Shown: positions 15,964 through 25,186 of the stretch, piece by piece
Position numbering within the stretch: the stretch's first letter is position 1
Layout of the letters: every line of letters starts with the position of its first letter
Origin: Oscillospiraceae bacterium
Lineage (GTDB): Bacteria; Bacillota; Clostridia; Oscillospirales; Oscillospiraceae
Direction of reading: 5' to 3'
DNA length: 33,222 nucleotides
Assembly (NCBI GenBank): GCA_024404215.1
Contig: JAKSQI010000001.1
Coordinates: forward strand, 1-33,222
Made by a program: the position numbers and the translations under genes
The notes under the pieces: generated by a model
What the model was told of the DNA's origin: nothing
Database searches by the model: none
What the model saw: the letters and a program-made list of their open reading frames with translations, nothing else

Positions 15964-15984
15964 CAGCCAAATTTAATACTTGTT

Positions 15985-16180
15985 TTCAGTGCTTCATTGC
16001 ACCGCTTAGGGCGATGAAGAGAATAGAGAATCATGTGAGAACCATGGACGGGGCCGCCACTGTATGTGCTCCGGGTGTGTGCGTTGACGAAAGTCAGTCA
16101 TTGGCAAATTGCTGAGAAGGCAGCATACATCCGCCGCTTTTGCGAGGAACACGAGTCAGGAGAACTGCTGGGAATTTGAA
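15985..16180 (+). promoter_or_regulatory. cobalamin (B12) riboswitch
   Basis: GAGAATCATGTGAGAACCATGGACGGGGCCGCCACTGTA matches the GGGAA..GGTGAGAATCC..CCCGCCACTGT core. GAGTCAGGAGAACTGC at 16153-16168 matches the B12 box AGTCAGGAGACCTGC. Confidence 0.8.
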
Positions 16181-16234
16181 GGGATTTCTGTGCACGGGAC
16201 GCTGTGCAGGGACTGTTTTTGTTGCAGGAAAACG

Positions 16235-16362: not shown

Positions 16363-16407
16363 TATCCCCCCTGGGGGCTTATCAGCGAAAAGAAGAAATG
16401 GTACAAT
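16363..16407 (+). promoter_or_regulatory. C/G-tract palindrome (site 1) abutting a sigma-A promoter
   Basis: TATCCCCCCTGGGGGCTTA (16363-16381) overlaps the -35 TTATCA. A 17-nt spacer leads to TACAAT (16402-16407), which is preceded by TGg. Confidence 0.6.
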
Positions 16408-16471
16408 TCCTCTCAAAGCGATGGGGGTAAAAGCCCGCGCAAAAATTAAATCACATTGTGGCCGACTGAAC

Positions 16472-16533
16472 AACAGCAGGCTTACCTAAAGTATCACCCT
16501 CGGGGGTGGTGTTGGGTAAGCCTGCTGTTTTTT
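16472..16533 (+). terminator. leader terminator (attenuator) upstream of the methyltransferase gene
   Basis: A 15-bp stem, AACAGCAGGCTTACC with GGTAAGCCTGCTGTT, encloses a CACCC/GGGTG inner hairpin. TTTTTT follows. It ends 25 nt before the ATG. Confidence 0.75.
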
Positions 16534-16558
16534 GGTTATCGCGGGATGGAGGAAACAG

Positions 16559-18046
16559 ATGAATCAGCAAGAGCGCGGGGAACGATGGGCTGACGGAAAG
16601 GGCTATGACAGCTACATCCAGGGGGAACTGCATTCCTTCCGTAAGGAAGCATGGAAACAGCAGCTGAGGCAGCATTTGCCTAAAAAGAATCTTCAAATCC
16701 TGGCTGTTGGAACAGGACCGGGCTTTTTCAGCTGCATTCTTTCTGAGCTGGGGTATCGGGCAACCGGCATTGATGCATCGGAAGGCATGTTGGCCTGTGC
16801 CCGTAAGAATGCGGAATGCTTGCAGGTGACACCTGAATTTCTGTTGATGGATGTTAACAGCCTGACCTTTCCGGATGAAAGCTTTGATGTTTTGGTAATG
16901 CGAAATGTAACCTGGACCTTGGAGCATCCGGAAAAGGTATATTCTGAGTTTAAGCGGCTGCTGAAGCCCAGGGGCATGCTGCTGATTTATGATGCCAACT
17001 GGCAGCTGCAGTTTTTTGACCCGGATTTGCGGCAGCGTGTGCTGGCTCGGGAAAAGGCCTATCGGGAAAAGTATGGTCGGGAGGAATTTGTTTCCCGAGG
17101 CGACATGGCTTATTATGCCACCGCCCCTTTGACTCATACCTACCGACCGGACTGGGACCGGGAGGTGCTGACCAATTTGGGCTTTGAGGTTTCCATAGAA
17201 GAGAACATTGGCAGAAGGGTTTATGAGCAGTGGGAAAAGGATTTGTATGCCGAGTCCCCTTTGTTTGAGATATGCGCAGTCAAGAAAGCGGAACCAGAGA
17301 CCCAAACCAACATGCATACCTACTGGCAGAAACGGGCGGAAACCTTTGGTTTTTTCCGCAAGCCGGAGGACGTGGATGCTATGGGGCGGGAGTATGCCCG
17401 TTATTTACCGGAGGGGCCTCTTCAGGTGCTGGATGCCGGTACGGGAACCGGCGTGATAGCTGCGGTTATGGCAAAGCTTGGCCATAAGGTTACTGCTGTT
17501 GACCTGTGTTCCAACATGCTGGAAAAGGCAAAGGAGAATCTGCGCAGTTTGGGACTGCAGGCGGATTTCTACTGCACCTCTGCCGGCGAACTGCCCTTCC
17601 CCGATGAAAGCTTTGATGTCGTTATCTCCCGCAATGTGACCTGGGCCCTGCCGGAGCCGGAGCATGTCATGGAGCAGTGGCGAAGGGTTCTCAAGCCCGG
17701 TGGCCTTTTGATTTATCGGGATGCCAATCACTACAACTACCTCTTTTTTGAAGAGGACCGGCAAAACCGAGAACGTATCATTGAATTGGCAGGCACCCCC
17801 CACGGAGACCATAACGATTCAAAGGAATATGATTATAATCTGTGTGATGAAACCGCCTACAATTTGCCTATGTCTAAGCTGAAACGTCCCGGACAATGGG
17901 ACGATATCATGCTGCCAAAGCTGGGCTTTGATATTTTAGCAGAGGAGCTTCGTTATCCCCAACGTCTGTTGAAATATGGCATAGCTGATGGCTACTATAC
18001 GGATTTTACCATAGTGGCCAGAAAGGCGGAAACAATAGAGGAGTGA
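16559..18046 (+). CDS. fused tandem class I SAM-dependent methyltransferase (two MTase domains)
   Basis: Two SAM-binding motifs, ILAVGTGPGFF and VLDAGTGTGVIA. Each is followed by FPDESFDV(L/V)..RNVTW.L..PE....(F/W).R.LKP.G.L. The ATG at 16559 follows GGAGGAAA. Confidence 0.85.
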   Translation: MNQQERGERWADGKGYDSYIQGELHSFRKEAWKQQLRQHLPKKNLQILAVGTGPGFFSCILSELGYRATGIDASEGMLACARKNAECLQVTPEFLLMDVNSLTFPDESFDVLVMRNVTWTLEHPEKVYSEFKRLLKPRGMLLIYDANWQLQFFDPDLRQRVLAREKAYREKYGREEFVSRGDMAYYATAPLTHTYRPDWDREVLTNLGFEVSIEENIGRRVYEQWEKDLYAESPLFEICAVKKAEPETQTNMHTYWQKRAETFGFFRKPEDVDAMGREYARYLPEGPLQVLDAGTGTGVIAAVMAKLGHKVTAVDLCSNMLEKAKENLRSLGLQADFYCTSAGELPFPDESFDVVISRNVTWALPEPEHVMEQWRRVLKPGGLLIYRDANHYNYLFFEEDRQNRERIIELAGTPHGDHNDSKEYDYNLCDETAYNLPMSKLKRPGQWDDIMLPKLGFDILAEELRYPQRLLKYGIADGYYTDFTIVARKAETIEE

Positions 18047-18050
18047 TGAA

Positions 18051-19031
18051 ATGGGACGCTATATCCTGAAACGGCTGCTGTGGCTGATACCGGTCATGCT
18101 GGTAATCTCCCTGATAGCCTTCCTTTTGATGTATCTGTCACCCGGCGATCCTGCGACGATTTACCTGTCCATGGGTGGTGATTCGCCTTCCGCAGAGGCC
18201 GTGGCAGAGCTGAGGGAAAAGATGGGACTGAATCGGCCTCTGTACGAACAGTTTGGAAGCTGGCTGATAAATCTGCTGCACGGTGATTTGGGAACATCCT
18301 TCTTTACGAAAAACCCGGTTATTGAGGATATTGCAACCCTATTCCCCAACACCCTTAAGCTTACGTTACTGGGCATGCTGGGAACACTGGTGATTTCCAT
18401 ACCCTTGGGCATTCTATCTGCAGTAAAGGCCAATAAGCTGACGGATAACATAATACGTGCCGGGTCCTTTGTTGTCGGTTCCATGCCGGGATTCTTTGCT
18501 GCCCTGCTGCTGATTTATCTTTTGGGTGTCAAGCTCCGTTGGCTTCCCACAATAAGCTCAGGATCCGCCAAGGGCATCATCCTGCCTGCCTTGACCTTAG
18601 CCTTGACAATGGCCCCCAATTATATCCGACAGATTCGAGCTGAGATTGTTAAAGAACTGGGAGAGGATTACATCCGAATGTTCCGGGGCAGAGGTATCAA
18701 AGAACGAATGATTCTTTATAACGGTGCACTGAAAAGTGTTATGCCCTCCATTCTGACCATTGCCGGAATGAACATGGGGCATTTGTTGGGGGGAACTTCC
18801 ATCATTGAAATGGTCTGTACCTACCAGGGGCTGGGGCGCTTGGCGGTAAATTCCATTACCAACCGTGATTATCCCCTGATGCAGGGGTTTGTTCTAATGA
18901 TGGCAGGTATTTATGTCATTATCAATCTGGTGGTGGATATTCTGCACGCCATGGCAGACCCGAGAGTAAAGCTTCGTATTTTGGCGGAGAACGGAGGTGG
19001 CTACCGACATGGAAAAAAGAAGGCGGTTTGA
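18051..19031 (+). CDS. ABC transporter permease (peptide/nickel family, OppB/NikB-like)
   Basis: Typical N-terminus MGRYILKRLLWLIPVMLVIS and LSPGDPA. Contains an EAA-like loop. Confidence 0.9.
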   Translation: MGRYILKRLLWLIPVMLVISLIAFLLMYLSPGDPATIYLSMGGDSPSAEAVAELREKMGLNRPLYEQFGSWLINLLHGDLGTSFFTKNPVIEDIATLFPNTLKLTLLGMLGTLVISIPLGILSAVKANKLTDNIIRAGSFVVGSMPGFFAALLLIYLLGVKLRWLPTISSGSAKGIILPALTLALTMAPNYIRQIRAEIVKELGEDYIRMFRGRGIKERMILYNGALKSVMPSILTIAGMNMGHLLGGTSIIEMVCTYQGLGRLAVNSITNRDYPLMQGFVLMMAGIYVIINLVVDILHAMADPRVKLRILAENGGGYRHGKKKAV

Positions 19032-19842
19032 CCCGGCAGTAGTCCGGCTTTTGGTTTGGTCCGGCATAGTTCTTCTGCTTCTTGTTTTGGCCTGGGTGGG
19101 TCCTCGCTTTATCCACCATGACCCCTATGAGGTTAATCTGCTGCAGATAACGGCGAGGCCTTCGGCAGAGTATCTCATGGGCACAGATTACCTGGGGCGC
19201 TGCACTCTTTGCCGTCTTATTACCGGAGCAGCCCGGTCCATATATGCGTCTTTAGCCGTGGTAGCTATCACTTTTATCATTGGAACAGCCATAGGAACCG
19301 TTTGCGGTTTTATCGGCGGGGCTTTTGATACGGTGGTTATGAGATTTGTAGATGCCGTGCAGGCCTTTCCCAGTCTCGTTTTTACCATTGCCATTGCGGC
19401 CATGCTGGGCAGCGGCATGGGCAACTGTATCATCGCCATGTCCTGTATTAACTGGACCCAATATGCCCGGCTTTCCCGCAGCCAGGTGCTGCAGGTGAAG
19501 GAGCGCACCTTTGTTAAGGCGGCCCGAACCACCGGCATGACCAATCGGCAGATTCTTTTTAAAACCATTTTGCCTAACAGTATGACGCCCCTGATTGTAT
19601 CGGCCAGCATGCATGTTGGAAACACAATCCTGGGTTTTTCCGGCCTAAGCTTTCTGGGGCTTGGTACCATGCCCCCCTTCCCGGAGTGGGGGAATATGCT
19701 CAACGACGGCAAGGCAACCCTGCAGACTGCACCCTGGACCGTTATTTTCCCGGGACTGGCCATTTTGCTTGTTGTCATGATTATGGGTATGTTCGGCGAC
19801 AGCGTGAATGAAGCGCTGAATCCGAAGAAAAATACAAATTAA
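19009..19842 (+). CDS. ABC transporter permease (OppC/NikC-like)
   Basis: Six-TM BPD_transp_1 profile. The ATG at 19009 follows GGAGGTGG. A GTG at 18997 is an alternative start. Confidence 0.88.
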   Translation: MEKRRRFDPAVVRLLVWSGIVLLLLVLAWVGPRFIHHDPYEVNLLQITARPSAEYLMGTDYLGRCTLCRLITGAARSIYASLAVVAITFIIGTAIGTVCGFIGGAFDTVVMRFVDAVQAFPSLVFTIAIAAMLGSGMGNCIIAMSCINWTQYARLSRSQVLQVKERTFVKAARTTGMTNRQILFKTILPNSMTPLIVSASMHVGNTILGFSGLSFLGLGTMPPFPEWGNMLNDGKATLQTAPWTVIFPGLAILLVVMIMGMFGDSVNEALNPKKNTN

Positions 19843-19863
19843 CAAACGAGAAAGGAAATTCAA

Positions 19864-21504
19864 ATGAAAAAAAACATGCTGAAAAAACTGACAGCCCTCA
19901 TGCTGTCCGTGCTGATGCTGCTGGCTCTCTTTGCCTGTGGCAGCAAGCCTGCGGATACTGCAGTGAGCCAAACTCCTGCTTCTTCGGATAATGCGGCGCA
20001 GTCAAGCACCGGAACGGATAATTCTGCAGCCACAGAAGAGAGACACATTGAGTTTACCTTCGGTGCAAACTCTGCCGCTAACAACGCAACGGTATTTACC
20101 TTTGACCCTGCTGTAGATTATAACGCATCAAAAGCAACAGCCATGGGCATGGCAGAGACTCTGTTGGCCTTGGATGCTAACAAGGAGGTTCAGCCAAAGC
20201 TGGCAACTGCTATTGAAAACACGGATGACACGACCTGGGTCTTGACCATTCGTGACGGTGTTACTTTTTCTAATGGGAAAGAACTGACCGCAGAAATGGT
20301 AAAAAAGTCTTTAGAGTATACCCTGTCTGTCAATGAACGCTTGAGCGCATTGGCGGATGTTGCCTCCATGGAGGCTGATGGCCAGACCTTGACCATTCAT
20401 ACCAATGCTGTCGTTGCTATTTTCGACCGCGTTTTGACAGAGCCCAACATGGCTATTTTTGATGTGGAGGGCACCGAGAATCTGGACAAAAATATGATTG
20501 GTACCGGTGCCTATATCCTGACCGATATGGACAGCGAAGGAAACTGCACTTTGACCCGCAACGACAATTACTGGCAGGGTACCCCCATTGCTGAAACCAT
20601 TCACACTAAGGCCAATCTGGATTCAGCAGCCATTACTTTGGCTCTCCAGTCCGGTGAAATTGACTGGTCCACCGGTGTTTCCACCAGTGACCTGGCCTTG
20701 TTTGCCGGCAACCCGGATTATGAGGTTCAAGAATACAATGCTGGTCGAGCCTTCTATCTGTATGTAAACCCCAACTATACCTTTACCATGGATCCTGCCC
20801 TGCGTGAAGCCCTTCAGTATGCCATAGACCGCGATGCCATCATTGCCGGTGTATACAGTGGTTATGGCTTCTCAACCCAGTCCATTTTCCCTGACTATTC
20901 CGAATACTACGACGCATCCTTGCAGCAGGCGGCTTATGATAAGGATAAGGCTGCCCAGATTTTGGCTGATGCCGGTTATGCGGATGCCGATGGCGATGGC
21001 TTCCTGGAAAAGGATGGTCAGAAGGTCACCCTGAATATTCTCTGCTATGCTAAAAACCAGTTTGATACCCTCAGCGAGGTTCTGCAGTCCATTCTCAAGG
21101 GCTATGGCATTGATGCCACCATTCAGGTCAGCGACACCATTAGCGATGATGCCAATGCCGGCGAATTCAATCTGGCTACCTATGGCTACAATACCCTGAC
21201 CCTGGGCGATTGCTACAATTATCTGTATCCTGTGTTCCATTCTCAAGGTACCGCAAACTTTAACGACCTTAACGATGCTGAAATTGACGGCTGGCTGGAT
21301 GAACTGAAGGTTACCAGTGACATGTCCAAACGTGTAGAGCTGGTTAAGAAGATTCAGGAGAAGGTTTATGCATCCAATGAATATATCTATATCATGCATG
21401 TAAAAAACACCATGGTATCCAAGGCCGGCATTGTTAATCTGCCTCCCATGTTTGGCGGTGACCAAATGGATAACTGCGTCCTCTGGACTGTTGACCGCAA
21501 ATGA
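19864..21504 (+). CDS. ABC substrate-binding lipoprotein, family 5 (OppA/NikA-like)
   Basis: Signal peptide with lipobox LALFAC-G. Length of 546 aa and motifs fit SBP_bac_5. Confidence 0.88.
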   Translation: MKKNMLKKLTALMLSVLMLLALFACGSKPADTAVSQTPASSDNAAQSSTGTDNSAATEERHIEFTFGANSAANNATVFTFDPAVDYNASKATAMGMAETLLALDANKEVQPKLATAIENTDDTTWVLTIRDGVTFSNGKELTAEMVKKSLEYTLSVNERLSALADVASMEADGQTLTIHTNAVVAIFDRVLTEPNMAIFDVEGTENLDKNMIGTGAYILTDMDSEGNCTLTRNDNYWQGTPIAETIHTKANLDSAAITLALQSGEIDWSTGVSTSDLALFAGNPDYEVQEYNAGRAFYLYVNPNYTFTMDPALREALQYAIDRDAIIAGVYSGYGFSTQSIFPDYSEYYDASLQQAAYDKDKAAQILADAGYADADGDGFLEKDGQKVTLNILCYAKNQFDTLSEVLQSILKGYGIDATIQVSDTISDDANAGEFNLATYGYNTLTLGDCYNYLYPVFHSQGTANFNDLNDAEIDGWLDELKVTSDMSKRVELVKKIQEKVYASNEYIYIMHVKNTMVSKAGIVNLPPMFGGDQMDNCVLWTVDRK

Positions 21505-22451
21505 GCAGGCTGCTGGATATCAATGGGATTGATGTCAGCTATGGAAACGCCCCCATTCTGAGGGGCGTTTCCATGCACGTCAAGGACGGTGAAATTGTAG
21601 GTGTTGTTGGTGAGTCCGGCAGCGGAAAGAGCACGACTATTTATGCTACCCTGGGTATTTTGGGGAATGGCGGAAAGGTAACAGCCGGCTCCATTCATTA
21701 CGATGGCCGGGATTTGCTCGCCCTTTCACAGGAGGACCTGAGAAAGATGCGGGGCAAGGAAATGTCCCTTGTTGCACAAAACCCTGTGACATCCTTCCAT
21801 CCCATACGAAAAATCAATAAACAGCTGAAGGAACTGGTTGCCTGTCACTCCGGTATGACCTATGCGGAAGCAGAGGAGCATATGTGTGAAATCATGGCAA
21901 AAATGAACTTGAAGGATGGAAAGCGCCTGCTTAACAGCTATGCCTTTGAACTGTCCGGTGGCATGTGCCAGAGGGTATCCATTGCCATGGCTCTGGTGTT
22001 GAGTCCAAAGCTCCTGCTGGCAGATGAGCCCACCAGCGCACTGGATGTTACCGTTCAAAAGCAGGTTGTGGAGGAGATGCGGAAGCTAAGGGATGAGTAT
22101 GGTAACTCCACCCTGATTGTATCCCATAACATGGGGGTTATTTCCTATATCTCTGATCGGGTTTATGTCATGTTTGCCGGCCGGGTTATGGAGTATGGGG
22201 AGAAGGGTGCCGTGATAAAAAGGCCCATGCATCCCTACACCAAAAATTTGATTGCGGCTGTGCCAACCATGGACGCACCCATGCCGACCGGCGTCCGCCC
22301 CACCGGGTTTGACCGGACAGTTCCCGGCTGTGTCTTTTATCAAAGCTGCCCCTGCCGACAGGAAGTCTGCGCCTTGTCAGATCCGGAGCCGGTAGAAACA
22401 GAATCCGGTCATTTTGTCAAATGCCATTGTATTCGGGAGGGAAAGCTATGA
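21501..22451 (+). CDS. ABC transporter ATP-binding protein (OppD/NikD-like)
   Basis: Walker A GESGSGKST, signature LSGGMCQR, Walker B LLLADEPT. ATGA overlap with the binding-protein gene. Confidence 0.92.
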   Translation: MSRLLDINGIDVSYGNAPILRGVSMHVKDGEIVGVVGESGSGKSTTIYATLGILGNGGKVTAGSIHYDGRDLLALSQEDLRKMRGKEMSLVAQNPVTSFHPIRKINKQLKELVACHSGMTYAEAEEHMCEIMAKMNLKDGKRLLNSYAFELSGGMCQRVSIAMALVLSPKLLLADEPTSALDVTVQKQVVEEMRKLRDEYGNSTLIVSHNMGVISYISDRVYVMFAGRVMEYGEKGAVIKRPMHPYTKNLIAAVPTMDAPMPTGVRPTGFDRTVPGCVFYQSCPCRQEVCALSDPEPVETESGHFVKCHCIREGKL

Positions 22452-23203
22452 ATGCCGTTGAAGTGGAAAACCTGAAGGTGAGCTTTTATTCCCATAAAAG
22501 CAACTCCTTTGTCCATGCCGTAGATGACGTTAGCTTTACTCTTGGCGAAAATGAGTTTTTGGGCTTGGTTGGTGAATCCGGCTGCGGAAAAAGCACCATT
22601 GCCCGTATGCTGATGGGGCTGCAGATTCCCGACGGCGGCACCATTCGCATCAAAGGGAAAGAAATCAAGCCCCCCTATCCTCACAACGTGTACAAGCAGA
22701 TTCAGATGATTTATCAAATGCCTCAGGACTCCTTCGACCCCCGCCGGAAGGTGGGGACCTGTATTACTGAAATACAGAGTAATTTCGGCGTAAACAAGAG
22801 GGAGGCCAGAGACTTTACCATGCATCTGCTGACCAGGGTTGGCTTGACGGAGGAGTACTATAATAAGTATCCCCATGAGATGAGCGGTGGAGAATGTCAG
22901 CGGGCGGCCATTGCTCGTTCTCTGTCCTTGAAGCCGGATGTACTGATTTGCGATGAGCCTACCAGTGCCTTGGATGTAAGTGTACAGGCCCAGGTGGTGG
23001 AGCTCCTGGCTCAGCTTCGCAAGGAAATGAAGCTGGGGGTCCTCTTTATTTCCCATGACCTGGCGTTGGTACAAGGTCTCTGCGATTCTGTCATGGTCAT
23101 GTATCAAGGCAAAATTGTGGAACGGGGCAGCGCAAAAGAAATCACCCAAAACCCCCGGGAAGACTATACACGCAAGCTTTTAAGTTCAGTCTTGTTGGTC
23201 TAA
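22448..23203 (+). CDS. ABC transporter ATP-binding protein (OppF/NikE-like)
   Basis: GESGCGKST, MSGGECQR, VLICDEPT. The ATG at 22448 overlaps the upstream stop and follows GGGAGGGAAAG. Confidence 0.92.
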   Translation: MNAVEVENLKVSFYSHKSNSFVHAVDDVSFTLGENEFLGLVGESGCGKSTIARMLMGLQIPDGGTIRIKGKEIKPPYPHNVYKQIQMIYQMPQDSFDPRRKVGTCITEIQSNFGVNKREARDFTMHLLTRVGLTEEYYNKYPHEMSGGECQRAAIARSLSLKPDVLICDEPTSALDVSVQAQVVELLAQLRKEMKLGVLFISHDLALVQGLCDSVMVMYQGKIVERGSAKEITQNPREDYTRKLLSSVLLV

Positions 23204-23244
23204 CCTGTTTAAAAGCCGGGGCAAAATGAATAATTGCTGGAAAG

Positions 23245-23290
23245 TATCCCCCCTGGGGGCTTAACAAAATCCCGCGATTTGTTGTACTAT
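23245..23290 (+). promoter_or_regulatory. C/G-tract palindrome (site 2) abutting a sigma-A promoter
   Basis: TATCCCCCCTGGGGGCTTA (23245-23263), identical to site 1, then TTAACA, an 18-nt spacer, and TACTAT. Confidence 0.6.
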
Positions 23291-23351
23291 TATCCCAGTA
23301 GCCCTTCCCCCTTTGCCGATGGGGTAGGGAAAATCCGATGAGGTGAACCCT

Positions 23352-23501
23352 ATGGCAGAAAACCGTGAATGGAAACTAACTGAGAAGGAAGAAAAGCTGT
23401 TGGCCATGCTGCGTGAAATTCGATTTGGTGAAGTGGTGATTCATGTGGCGGATGGTCAGCCGGTGCGTGCGGAAGAGGTCCGCAAGAGTATTAAATTCTG
23501 A
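23352..23501 (+). CDS. small DUF2292/YezD-like protein (49 aa), absent from the ORF track
   Basis: MAENREWKLTEKEEKLLAMLREIRFGEVVIHVADGQPVRAEEVRKSIKF. The ..L..I.FG.V.I.V.DG.....E...K pattern is that of the YezD family. GAGGTGA RBS 6 nt upstream. Confidence 0.7.
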   Translation: MAENREWKLTEKEEKLLAMLREIRFGEVVIHVADGQPVRAEEVRKSIKF

Positions 23502-23533
23502 CGGTTTGGAAAACAAGAAAAATACTTGTGTTT

Positions 23534-23578
23534 TATCCCCCAGGGGGGCTTTAAAGCAAAGCCGACCGGTGTTATACT
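23534..23578 (+). promoter_or_regulatory. C/G-tract palindrome (site 3) abutting a sigma-A promoter
   Basis: TATCCCCCAGGGGGGCTTTA (23534-23553), then TTTAAA, a 17-nt spacer, and TATACT preceded by TGt. Confidence 0.6.
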
Positions 23579-23616
23579 AAGACCGTTAATTCCTCTCATA
23601 ACCTTTCTGGGAAGAG

Positions 23617-23645
23617 CCGCACTCCGGTGAGGGAGTGCGGTTTTT
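23617..23645 (+). terminator. leader terminator (attenuator) upstream of the His-rich gene
   Basis: CCGCACTCC-N6-GGAGTGCGG followed by TTTTT. It lies 65 nt before the ATG. Confidence 0.7.
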
Positions 23646-23709
23646 CATAGGGCTCCGGCAGACTGCCGGGAGAGGGATGGAGTCGAAATAAGAATAAAGG
23701 AGTACCGTT

Positions 23710-24138
23710 ATGCATTTGGAACACGATATTGTGGGCAGCGAGCATGAGCATACGCACACCCACGAGCATACCCACGAGCACACCCATGAAAATGGCGAGA
23801 CCCATCAGCATGCCCATACCCATGAGCATTGTCACAGCCACGGCCATGACCATGAGCATACCCATGACCATGCTCATGACCACGACCACGCCCATGAGCA
23901 TTGCCACGACCACGAGCACAGCCATGATCACGGCCATGGGGAGGCCGATAACCGCCTCTATGCATTGATGAATTACATGGCCGGCCATAATGCCGACCAC
24001 ACCAAGGAATTGGCTGAACTGGCTGTCCAGCTGAAGGACAGCGGCAAGGAATCTGCCTATAACAAGGTAATGGCCGCTGTAGAAGAATTCGGAAAGGGCA
24101 ATGACCTGCTGGCAGAGGCCCTGAAGGAACTGAACTGA
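23710..24138 (+). CDS. histidine-rich (H-x-H repeat) putative metal-binding protein with a C-terminal helical domain
   Basis: By my count there are about 33 His in the first 76 residues, in a near-perfect alternating HxH array (HEHTHTHEHTHEHTH...HDHEHSHDHGHG), plus 2 Cys. An ordinary roughly 60-aa helical tail follows. AAAGGAG RBS. Confidence 0.8.
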   Translation: MHLEHDIVGSEHEHTHTHEHTHEHTHENGETHQHAHTHEHCHSHGHDHEHTHDHAHDHDHAHEHCHDHEHSHDHGHGEADNRLYALMNYMAGHNADHTKELAELAVQLKDSGKESAYNKVMAAVEEFGKGNDLLAEALKELN

Positions 24139-24171
24139 GTTCCGCTGAGGTAAGCGAAAAACGAGAAAGAA

Positions 24172-24215
24172 CCCCGTGCTTCCGTCATGAGAAGCACGGG
24201 GCTTTTGTCGTTTTT
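24172..24215. terminator. bidirectional intrinsic terminator
   Basis: CCCCGTGCTTC-N8-GAAGCACGGGG with CTTTTGTCGTTTTT on the plus side. An A-rich run upstream serves the convergent minus-strand gene. Confidence 0.8.
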
Positions 24216-24223
24216 GGAAGGAA

Positions 24224-25186
24224 TTAAAGCTCCTCCGGGGGCAAATAACCGGCGGGATTCCGCAGCGGACAGCTGTCCATAAGCTCAGCCAGGGCGGCAC
24301 GGTAGCCGACAGCATCCGAGGCCTTCATCAGCTTTTTCAGCGGGCGGCGGTTATCGGAAAAGGCCTGGCCCAGGTAGGCCCAATGCTCTTTCATTCGCAT
24401 CAGCACCTGCCGCTCCTGCCCCAGCAGGGAGATGTAAGCCTCCCAGAGACTATCCAAAAAGGGGAGAAGCTCTTCCTTTGTCAATGGGGTGCTGCCCTTC
24501 AGCTCGGCAAAGAGCTTTGGGTTGGCGGCTGCTCCGCGGCCCAGCATTACCATGTCGGTATCCGGGTTGGCGGAGGCAAAGGCAGAAACCGACTCGCGGT
24601 CAAAAAGGTTGCCGTTGTAGCAAAGGGGCAGGCGGCTGTTGGCCTTGGCATAAGCCCACAGTTCGGCATCCGGCAGGCCCTTATACTGCTGCCGACGCAC
24701 CCGGGGGTGAAGAATCAGCAGGGAGGCCGGATATTGGTTGTACAGCTCCAGCAGGGCCGGAAACTCCTCCGGGCTTTCCATGCCCAGTCGGGTTTTCAGG
24801 GAGATGGCAATGGGGGAGCCGGCAAATACACCGTCCAGCAGAGCATTGAGCAGGTCCGGTTGGTTCAGCAGGCCGGCGCCCTTTTTTTTGCTGACCATGG
24901 TGCCGGAGGGGCAGCCCAGATTCAGGTTGACCTCGGTATAACCCATGTCCGCCAGGCTGCGGATGGCCCAAAGCATATCCTCCGGGTTGTGCCCAATAAG
25001 CTGGGGAATAACCCCCTTGTCTGCCTGAGCTTCTACCTCACGCAGCTCCCGGGGGGTGAAAACCCGGTCCTGAGTAGGGGAGAGGAAGGGGGTGTACCAG
25101 GCGTCCGGGGCGTCAAAGTGCCGGGTCAGAACCCGGCGCCATACGTGGCCGGTTACCCCCTGCATGGGGGCGCAGATGTATCGCAT
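24224..25186 (-). CDS. tRNA-dihydrouridine synthase (Dus) family flavoprotein
   Basis: APMQGVTG ... EVNLNLGCPS ... TIM-barrel Dus motifs. Confidence 0.8.
   Translation of the reverse strand: MRYICAPMQGVTGHVWRRVLTRHFDAPDAWYTPFLSPTQDRVFTPRELREVEAQADKGVIPQLIGHNPEDMLWAIRSLADMGYTEVNLNLGCPSGTMVSKKKGAGLLNQPDLLNALLDGVFAGSPIAISLKTRLGMESPEEFPALLELYNQYPASLLILHPRVRRQQYKGLPDAELWAYAKANSRLPLCYNGNLFDRESVSAFASANPDTDMVMLGRGAAANPKLFAELKGSTPLTKEELLPFLDSLWEAYISLLGQERQVLMRMKEHWAYLGQAFSDNRRPLKKLMKASDAVGYRAALAELMDSCPLRNPAGYLPPEEL

Follow-up and report, generated by a model that had tools for sequence, protein, structure and literature searches.

A histidine-rich DUF8180 protein behind an operator shared with a Nik-type importer: a probable CooJ-like nickel acceptor in an Oscillospiraceae bacterium

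Introduction

CooJ of R. rubrum is a 12.6 kDa protein with 16 histidines in one tail that holds 4 Ni per monomer, and it is needed together with CooC and CooT for carbon monoxide dehydrogenase (CODH) activity at low nickel (PMC6006190). CooJ proteins are said to be hard to recognise by sequence, and variants with an N-terminal His-rich region have been described in Shewanella fodinae and Clostridium pasteurianum BC1 (bioRxiv 10.64898/2026.03.10.710785). A second His-rich protein, hp of C. autoethanogenum (CAETHG_1604 / LABRINI_07945), is encoded beside CooT (nbp) and the C1-fixing cluster and is conserved among acetogens; it is highly expressed, its deletion leads to growth defects, and its function is undescribed (PMC10230548). 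Here we analyse a gene for a 142-residue His-rich protein in a stretch of 33,222 nucleotides from an Oscillospiraceae bacterium (GCA_024404215.1, contig JAKSQI010000001.1, positions 1 to 33,222), which we call the window. From sequence comparisons we put the probability at roughly 0.7 that its product is a cytosolic, CooJ-like nickel acceptor or buffer that is co-regulated with nickel uptake, a reading in which we infer both metal binding and nickel specificity.

CooJ combines a helical oligomerisation domain, which carries a His-based metal site, with a disordered His-rich region. The window protein resembles it in being a small cytoplasmic protein that pairs a helical domain, with a putative His-based metal site, with a His-rich region, and in the cooC/cooS-type context of its family; the N-terminal position of the His-rich region matches the S. 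fodinae and C. pasteurianum BC1 variants. Like hp, it is a small His-rich protein of a kind encoded beside Wood-Ljungdahl genes, but the window gene has no CooT partner and is linked to a Nik-type importer. An earlier note on this DNA, written from the sequence alone, had called the composition typical of Ni/Co/Zn storage or chaperone proteins such as Hpn, or of the His tails of HypB and UreE. Hpn and Hpn-like of Helicobacter pylori and the tails of HypB, SlyD and UreE do have extreme His content and an expected capacity to bind or buffer several Ni(II) ions. They are, however, either wholly low-complexity or appendages of a GTPase, a peptidyl-prolyl isomerase or UreE, whereas the window array is joined to a conserved two-helix domain that has its own family and no homology to any of them, and we consider CooJ, with its part in CODH maturation, the closer analogue.

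Results

The window gene encodes a DUF8180 protein with a long H-x-H array

The gene and its parts are as follows.

23710 to 24138, plus strand: coding sequence of the 142-residue His-rich protein of the DUF8180 family, from its ATG start, homologue searches and substitution pattern.
23697 to 23702, plus strand: ribosome-binding site AAGGAG, 7 nt 5' of the ATG, read from the sequence.
23743 to 23937, plus strand: H-x-H array of residues 12-76, from composition; within it AlphaFold2 (AF2) predicts two strands, 14-25 and 31-42, that pair as a beta-hairpin about an ENGET turn.
23938 to 24135, plus strand: DUF8180 domain (residues 77-142), two long antiparallel helices, from conservation, AF2 and the PF26551 label of homologues.
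24172 to 24201, plus strand: intrinsic terminator of the gene, bidirectional and common to the convergent Dus gene, from a terminator scan and folding.

To place the protein in a family we searched with its C-terminal part. A word-indexed protein search with this region found one relative only, and neither the entire protein nor its last 65 residues gave more than composition noise (ZIP loop, serine-rich) in Pfam and NCBIfam scans. An exhaustive phmmer search with the C-terminal 67 residues recovered 218 cluster representatives at E<=1e-3. P0001, the nearest relative, whose domain is 90% identical, carries the precomputed label PF26551, which is DUF8180, and so do all 47 profile matches; the window protein thus belongs to DUF8180 by transitivity. 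All family members were named "hypothetical protein" in the sources searched, where no other name was found, and the term PF26551 was not found in the literature.

In the sampled sequences the family is defined by a conserved domain of about 60 residues at or near the C-terminus, followed by a median of 4 residues, and by an N-terminal extension that ranges from none to more than 200 residues. When that extension was at least 10 residues long, 93 of 137 sequences had at least 25% His in it, and 9 had at least 30 His. Three residues are invariant in the alignment, H93, N94 and H97, which form an HNxxH motif on helix 1 (H-N-A-D-H-T-K-E-L in the window protein). L86, E100, N131 and L134 are near-invariant in the full-length alignment, with E100 and N131 at 90% or above, and a domain-only alignment adds further conserved positions, including G130 of a GN pair on helix 2. 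We propose that the domain holds a putative specific metal site made of H93 and H97, probably together with E100. The C-terminal region had been described as an ordinary helical domain; it is predicted to be helical and is far from ordinary, being the conserved part that defines the family.

In the window protein His stands at residues 2 and 5 and then alternates with other residues over 12-26 and again over 32-76, which gives 33 His in residues 1-76, 31 in residues 12-76 and 35 in the whole protein; the two Cys of the array are residues 41 and 65. The earlier claim of an extreme H-x-H protein with almost unbroken alternation and two Cys is therefore borne out. The DNA of the array is an imperfect repeat (Tandem Repeats Finder periods of 6-42 nt with 66-90% matches) and its His codons are mixed, 21 CAT and 14 CAC for the protein, which argues that the composition has been selected at the protein level and is no fresh microsatellite. 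Array length is plastic, as the earlier note had predicted for strains: clusters at 90% identity or more span 116-137 and 104-131 residues with all indels inside the His-rich part, and the window protein differs from its nearest relative by 9 residues in array length.

The reading frame was examined against L048, a 1-kb Logan contig that holds the nearest relative. The 66 C-terminal codons differ by 25 synonymous and 7 non-synonymous changes and the first 13 codons by 5 and 0, an excess of synonymous changes that marks the plus frame as a gene under purifying selection. An antisense open reading frame (ORF) for 239 residues at 23596-24315 was rejected: its central part is a low-complexity mirror of the array, and the synonymous-change signature lies in the plus frame.

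AF2, run on a 47-row alignment, predicts helices at residues 76-110 and 114-141 with a predicted local distance difference test (pLDDT) score of 93-98. It also places the array hairpin (strands 14-25 and 31-42) at pLDDT 64-86, and the rest of the array is of low confidence. Of 41 long arrays, 18 contain the corresponding turn motif, HxH(x)[D/N/E]GxxHxH, versus 2.5% of shuffled arrays, so the turn is no accident of composition.

A separate feature of the family is its start: Met-His opens 50 of the 151 sequences sampled, and in a subgroup the N-terminus reads MH(L/I/F)(D/E/H)HDH(I/V)G. A Met-His start resembles the N-terminal Met-His metal ligands of HypA and NikM/CbiM.

DUF8180 genes keep company with CooC and acetyl-CoA synthase

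To compare neighbourhoods we sampled the window's family at one genome per genus and took the DUF8180 loci, 31 with the window's own included. A gene for a CooC-like ATPase, 58-84% identical to CooC of the window's genome, lies directly downstream on the same strand in 15 of them. InrS-like genes of the CsoR family adjoin DUF8180 in 4, and further neighbours are CooT, RACo, MTHFR and corrinoid-protein genes. A locus search with the window protein alone gave one locus; the nearest named relative is a Faecousia metagenome-assembled genome (MAG).

Co-occurrence was counted in 121 genomes of the window's family. DUF8180 is present in 30 and full-length acetyl-CoA synthase (ACS) in 29, with both in 26; only 4 of the 92 genomes that lack ACS have DUF8180. 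An InrS-like gene is found in 27 of the 30 DUF8180 genomes. The genomes are related to one another, and we describe these counts as a strong association rather than a formal test. At the level of the phylum DUF8180 is uncommon, with 17 carriers among 400 genomes.

The window's own genome, a 1.5-Mb MAG of 84% completeness, encodes CODH, two ACS and two CooC. It also holds a short DUF8180 paralogue of 83 residues on another contig (C136), in the order InrS-like (divergent), DUF8180-CooC-acsD-acsC-acsB. With this CooC-linked copy elsewhere in the genome, the window gene is a second paralogue, and its array is among the longest. "Stand-alone gene", as the earlier note had it, holds for the window copy and fails for the family, whose members normally sit in CooC/ACS clusters, as the paralogue does here. 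The metal-handling role that the note had proposed stands as the best reading: the neighbours of the domain are CooC, ACS and InrS-like genes, and most homologues have the His-rich extension. The note would have given this role up for a C-terminal domain of a family without ties to metals and homologues lacking the array, and the check did not refute it. As a separate observation, the CODH gene appears to be split at contig ends, with Pfam model positions 351-512 on C15 and 1-318 on C136, which makes it probable that these two Wood-Ljungdahl contigs adjoin in the genome.

One operator-promoter serves the His-protein gene and importers

The sequence in front of the gene, and its two further copies in the window, are as follows.

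23534 to 23553, no strand: C-tract/G-tract palindrome TATCCCCCAGGGGGGCTTTA, centre about 42 nt 5' of the predicted start, candidate CsoR/RcnR (InrS-like) operator, from pattern recurrence.
23550 to 23578, plus strand: sigma-70-type promoter-like TTTAAA-17-TATACT with TG extension, from a promoter scan; the -10 and the spacing are kept in L048.
23245 to 23263, no strand: second palindrome copy, at the promoter of the DUF2292/YezD-like ORF 23343-23501.
16363 to 16381, no strand: third palindrome copy, at the promoter of the operon of tandem methyltransferases and a Nik-type ATP-binding cassette (ABC) importer (16532-23203).

The palindrome promoter of the earlier note is confirmed, in that TATCCCCCAGGGGGGCTTTA abuts the -35 element of this promoter. 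The site, TAT-CCCCC-A-GGGGGG-CTTTA, is a G/C-tract inverted repeat with A/T flanks, as in CsoR/RcnR-type operators. Genome-wide, exact matches to TATCCCCCNNGGGGG are the three window copies only (16363, 23245 and 23534). The same operator-promoter architecture stands at 5 promoters of this genome, and the two outside the window, with the same spacing to the -10, precede a second DUF2292 gene (C33) and a methyltransferase paralogue (C187). Beyond this genome it precedes the orthologue in L048, a CbiM+PDGLE importer in G180 (21 identical bases), a NikB-like permease in the same-genus genome G074 and an operon of DUF8180 and a CsoR-family gene in G066. An operator common to importer and His-protein gene, as first proposed, thus holds and reaches other genera.

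We then scanned the 121 genomes with a strict pattern, ATCCCCC-N0-3-GGGGG-N0-2-GCTT. It was found in 10 (the window's own and 9 others), and a reversed-pattern control in none of the 121. The genes behind it encode Nik-type and NikM-type importers, a BtuF-like binding protein, methyltransferases and DUF8180. An InrS-like protein is encoded in all 10 genomes with the strict pattern, compared with 38 of 121 overall. NikR was rejected for now as the regulator, since a NikR_C domain is absent from the three carriers examined (the window's own genome, G074 and G180).

There are three CsoR-family genes in the window's genome. One, encoded beside the CODH gene, specifies an InrS-like protein that has a His-rich N-terminal tail and preserves the C-H-C ligand positions. 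Among solved structures it is closest to 6AHX and InrS 5FMN (InrS E=1e-18), which rank ahead of CsoR. At C139:1169-1214 of the same genome, two classical CsoR boxes, TACCCTGCGGGGGTA and TACCCGTAGGGGGTA, lie before a copA-csoR unit, and these boxes (TACCC-N3/4-GGGGGTA) are unlike the nickel-regulon palindrome. Because of the 10-of-10 co-occurrence, the absence of NikR from three carriers, the InrS-type relatives and the separate copper CsoR boxes, we lean towards reading the palindrome as the operator of an InrS-like nickel sensor.

This reading has a described parallel. InrS of Synechocystis PCC 6803 (5FMN) likewise has C-H-C ligands, a G/C-tract palindrome as its operator, no NikR beside it and sites at nickel import genes, a comparison in which placing the genome's own InrS-like protein at 23534 comes only from the 10-of-10 co-occurrence. 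Members of the CsoR/RcnR family are usually de-repressed by metal, and InrS binds upstream of the Synechocystis nik genes and enhances their expression in an organism that lacks nikR (PMC7055735). A site at -42 is compatible with either repression or enhancement. We infer rather than observe which protein is the regulator, in which direction it acts and what part, if any, the leader hairpin described below plays.

The three window copies of the palindrome show no T-run in their sequence, and we therefore do not read them as terminators of the gene that precedes each. Another palindrome, ATCCCCCC-(AT/AC/GC)-GGGGG followed by TTTTG, lies at C136:1320-1332 (L011/L043), in the gap that follows the InrS-like stop codon and about 240 nt ahead of the CODH start. 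It is kept, with a varying centre, in three genomes of the genus (among them G074:C50:89010 and G249:C32:40300) and could be a terminator, an operator or both.

Other genes behind this architecture were noted in passing. The DUF2292/YezD-like paralogues, of 52 residues (window 23343-23501) and 51 residues (C33:3999-4154), each have their own operator-promoter, which would place the DUF2292 protein in the same presumed nickel regulon. In L085 (G009:C2:76822) the operator-promoter precedes a Cys-rich ORF of about 150 residues (…CPEADGGG…APCCSG…) to which no family was assigned. At G074:C10 (L047 9559-10197) a 136-residue DUF8180 protein is encoded divergently from a tandem methyltransferase, 35% identical to the window's, and the spacer has two C5G4 palindromes on either side of a -10-like box; the link between His-rich protein and methyltransferase thus recurs without an importer.

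The leader contains a terminator-like hairpin

Two features lie between promoter and start codon.

23585 to 23709, plus strand: predicted 5' leader of about 125 nt that starts AATTCCTCTCA, like the leader at 16405; folding z-score -4.6.
23617 to 23645, plus strand: terminator-like hairpin CCGCACTCC / GGAGTGCGG with loop GGTGAG (stem 23617-23640), then T5 (23641-23645).

The hairpin, at about -22 kcal/mol, is close in stability to the gene's own 3' terminator (about -23) and is kept in L048 with base changes in the stem. It was unlisted by a consensus terminator scan, which we tentatively attribute to a stem that can be extended into the T-run. The terminator hairpin of the earlier note is thus real. 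Its claim of conditional attenuation fares less well and is kept as a hypothesis: no competing antiterminator was found, the best alternative fold (-7 kcal/mol) leaving the 5' terminator arm uninvolved, no Rfam family was assigned, and the comparison has one homologous leader. Rfam at E<=1 over 22900-24400 gave chance miRNA-like matches in the His array and no NiCo, T-box or other riboswitch. An exact leader pattern had 0 matches in a JGI metagenome scan, and leader BLAST against 400 family genomes returned the 21-nt operator and a few short second-hairpin matches of marginal E, with no whole leader. Our confidence in any function of the leader is low.

Two other leader models were set aside. 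The minimum-energy fold, a three-way junction, has an outer helix and a second hairpin that are missing in L048. A His-codon leader peptide was dropped, as the leader holds just a 4-codon mini-ORF (MESK).

Features of the leader recur at other promoters. Both long leaders of the window (23585-23595 and 16405-16415) start with AATTCCTCTCA, which is kept in L048, and both contain GGGATGGAG downstream of their hairpins. Strong terminator-like hairpins 10-90 nt downstream of operator-promoters are a recurrent arrangement, seen at window 16478-16533 and 23617-23645, in L063 (G074:C47) and L084 (G105:C5:54977) and at C122:231 of the window's own genome. Two of these come so early that only a tiny transcript would result, and no shared sequence motif was established among them.

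Discussion

A model for the window protein as a nickel acceptor

The features of the sequence, the family membership, the neighbourhoods, the co-occurrence and the shared operator were all seen directly, and they are what the nickel-acceptor reading builds on. In the mechanism we propose, the shared operator would cause the His protein to be made together with the uptake system. The protein would take incoming nickel and hand it on towards CooC and CODH/ACS. Its C-terminal 65 residues would form a helical hairpin, probably pairing into a four-helix bundle with a specific metal site. The N-terminal array, partly a beta-hairpin with all His on one face, would bind several further Ni(II) at lower affinity and so may act as a buffer or reservoir. 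The operator would most likely be read by the His-tailed InrS-like protein encoded beside the CODH gene.

Several observations weigh against this reading. A metal-binding measurement for any DUF8180 protein was not found in the literature. The neighbours of the window copy are the Nik-type ABC operon, DUF2292 and Dus, with no CooC, CooT or CODH, and the copy thus differs from CooJ in lying behind an importer, outside a coo/acs cluster. The family profile matched only designed helical bundles among PDB sequences, at E>0.1, with CooJ (6HK5) absent at E<=10; Foldseek against the PDB had no match at E<=0.001, and its best 50 were generic helical hairpins with no CooJ chain. Homology to CooJ is therefore unproven. 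The motifs differ as well, HNxxHxxE in the window protein versus H(W/F)xxHxxxH in CooJ (bioRxiv 10.64898/2026.03.10.710785): the distance between the first two His is shared, but the window protein has N at position 2 and, where the third ligand would be, E at +7. Finally, the array has 33 His and the CooJ tail 16. By comparison of sequences, DUF8180 would work like CooJ in architecture and context, and it departs from CooJ in similarity and motif.

The regulation adds two points on the same side. No C/G-tract site was found in the intergenic region beside the genome's own InrS-like gene. Release of a CsoR/RcnR repressor by metal would turn the importer on at high nickel, an odd logic, unless the regulator acts like apo-InrS at the Synechocystis nik operon. 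The importer operon, in addition, is headed by a cobalamin riboswitch (15970-16186, 69 bits), which would fit cobalt and brings us to the first of three other explanations.

The metal may be cobalt

It is possible, though unlikely, that the protein is a cobalt acceptor or buffer. In that case the importer would supply Co(II) to corrinoid synthesis or the corrinoid iron-sulfur protein, and the array would hold cobalt. Besides the riboswitch, the operator stands elsewhere before genes for CbiM-family and BtuF-like transport, and RcnR-/InrS-type sensors can bind Co(II) (PMC7055735). These points are met by evidence on the importer, on the promoter and on the family. The binding protein of the importer has nickel-binding proteins as its best solved relatives (3T66 at 1e-50 and S. 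aureus NikA at 2.5e-37). Transcripts from the operator-promoters would begin past both the riboswitch and its terminator, which leaves the His-protein gene itself outside B12 control. The neighbours that the family keeps, CooC and ACS/CODH, stand for nickel insertion and nickel enzymes and not for cobalamin synthesis. H-x-H arrays bind Co(II) as well as Ni(II), which counts for cobalt.

The protein may serve storage or regulation

Somewhat less probable than cobalt is an Hpn-like function in detoxification or storage of excess metal, induced when a repressor is released at high metal and with no dedicated link to CODH/ACS. The composition is like that of Hpn-type proteins, the plastic array length is as expected of a capacity trait, the window copy is physically apart from CooC/ACS clusters, and de-repression by metal is the classical behaviour of CsoR/RcnR proteins (PMC7055735). 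A pure excess response, however, would not be expected to share its operator with uptake systems, as is seen in four genera, and the invariant HN..H residues of the domain and the co-occurrence with ACS (26 of 30) argue for a function with a specific partner.

Least probable of the three is a regulatory partner, in which DUF8180 would not deliver metal to enzymes but would tune the threshold of the nickel regulon, either by binding to the InrS-like repressor or as its competitor for nickel: the two genes are adjacent in 4 of 31 loci and at the paralogue locus on C136, are in one operon behind the operator in G066 and co-occur in 27 of 30 DUF8180 genomes, and both proteins are small helical bundles with His-rich N-termini, but direct evidence of interaction is absent, CooC is the commoner neighbour (15 loci), and any buffer shifts the response of a sensor without protein contact.

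A nickel regulon in acetogenic Oscillospiraceae

We conclude that a nickel acceptor or buffer related to CODH/ACS maturation accounts best for the window protein. Proteins of the DUF8180 kind are already in databases and have been noticed in acetogens; what is unusual here is the placement of a paralogue behind an importer, a regulon that crosses genera and hairpins close to the promoters. By analogy with Synechocystis, a wider and doubtful extension of the nickel-acceptor reading is an undescribed nickel-acquisition regulon of acetogenic Oscillospiraceae, of which the window would show one arm. In it, an InrS-like sensor on C5-N-G5 near -42 would activate in the manner of apo-InrS when nickel is scarce, with Nik and NikM importers, tandem methyltransferases, DUF2292 and a long-array DUF8180 as targets. 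The last of these might be a dedicated acceptor with a "histidine ladder" hairpin, and the promoter-proximal hairpins might act as a second checkpoint, at the RNA level and of an undescribed kind.

In acetogens the central nickel enzyme is CODH/ACS, whose nickel supply is poorly understood beyond CooC. DUF8180 appears to be the common His-rich partner in Clostridia that has had no biochemical study so far. The genome described here offers a natural comparison: the paralogue with the short array is encoded next to CooC, the one with the long array next to an importer, and the two would represent "delivery" and "uptake/buffer" contexts. The compact operator common to importers and a presumed chaperone offers a testable nickel regulon for gut Oscillospiraceae that lack NikR.

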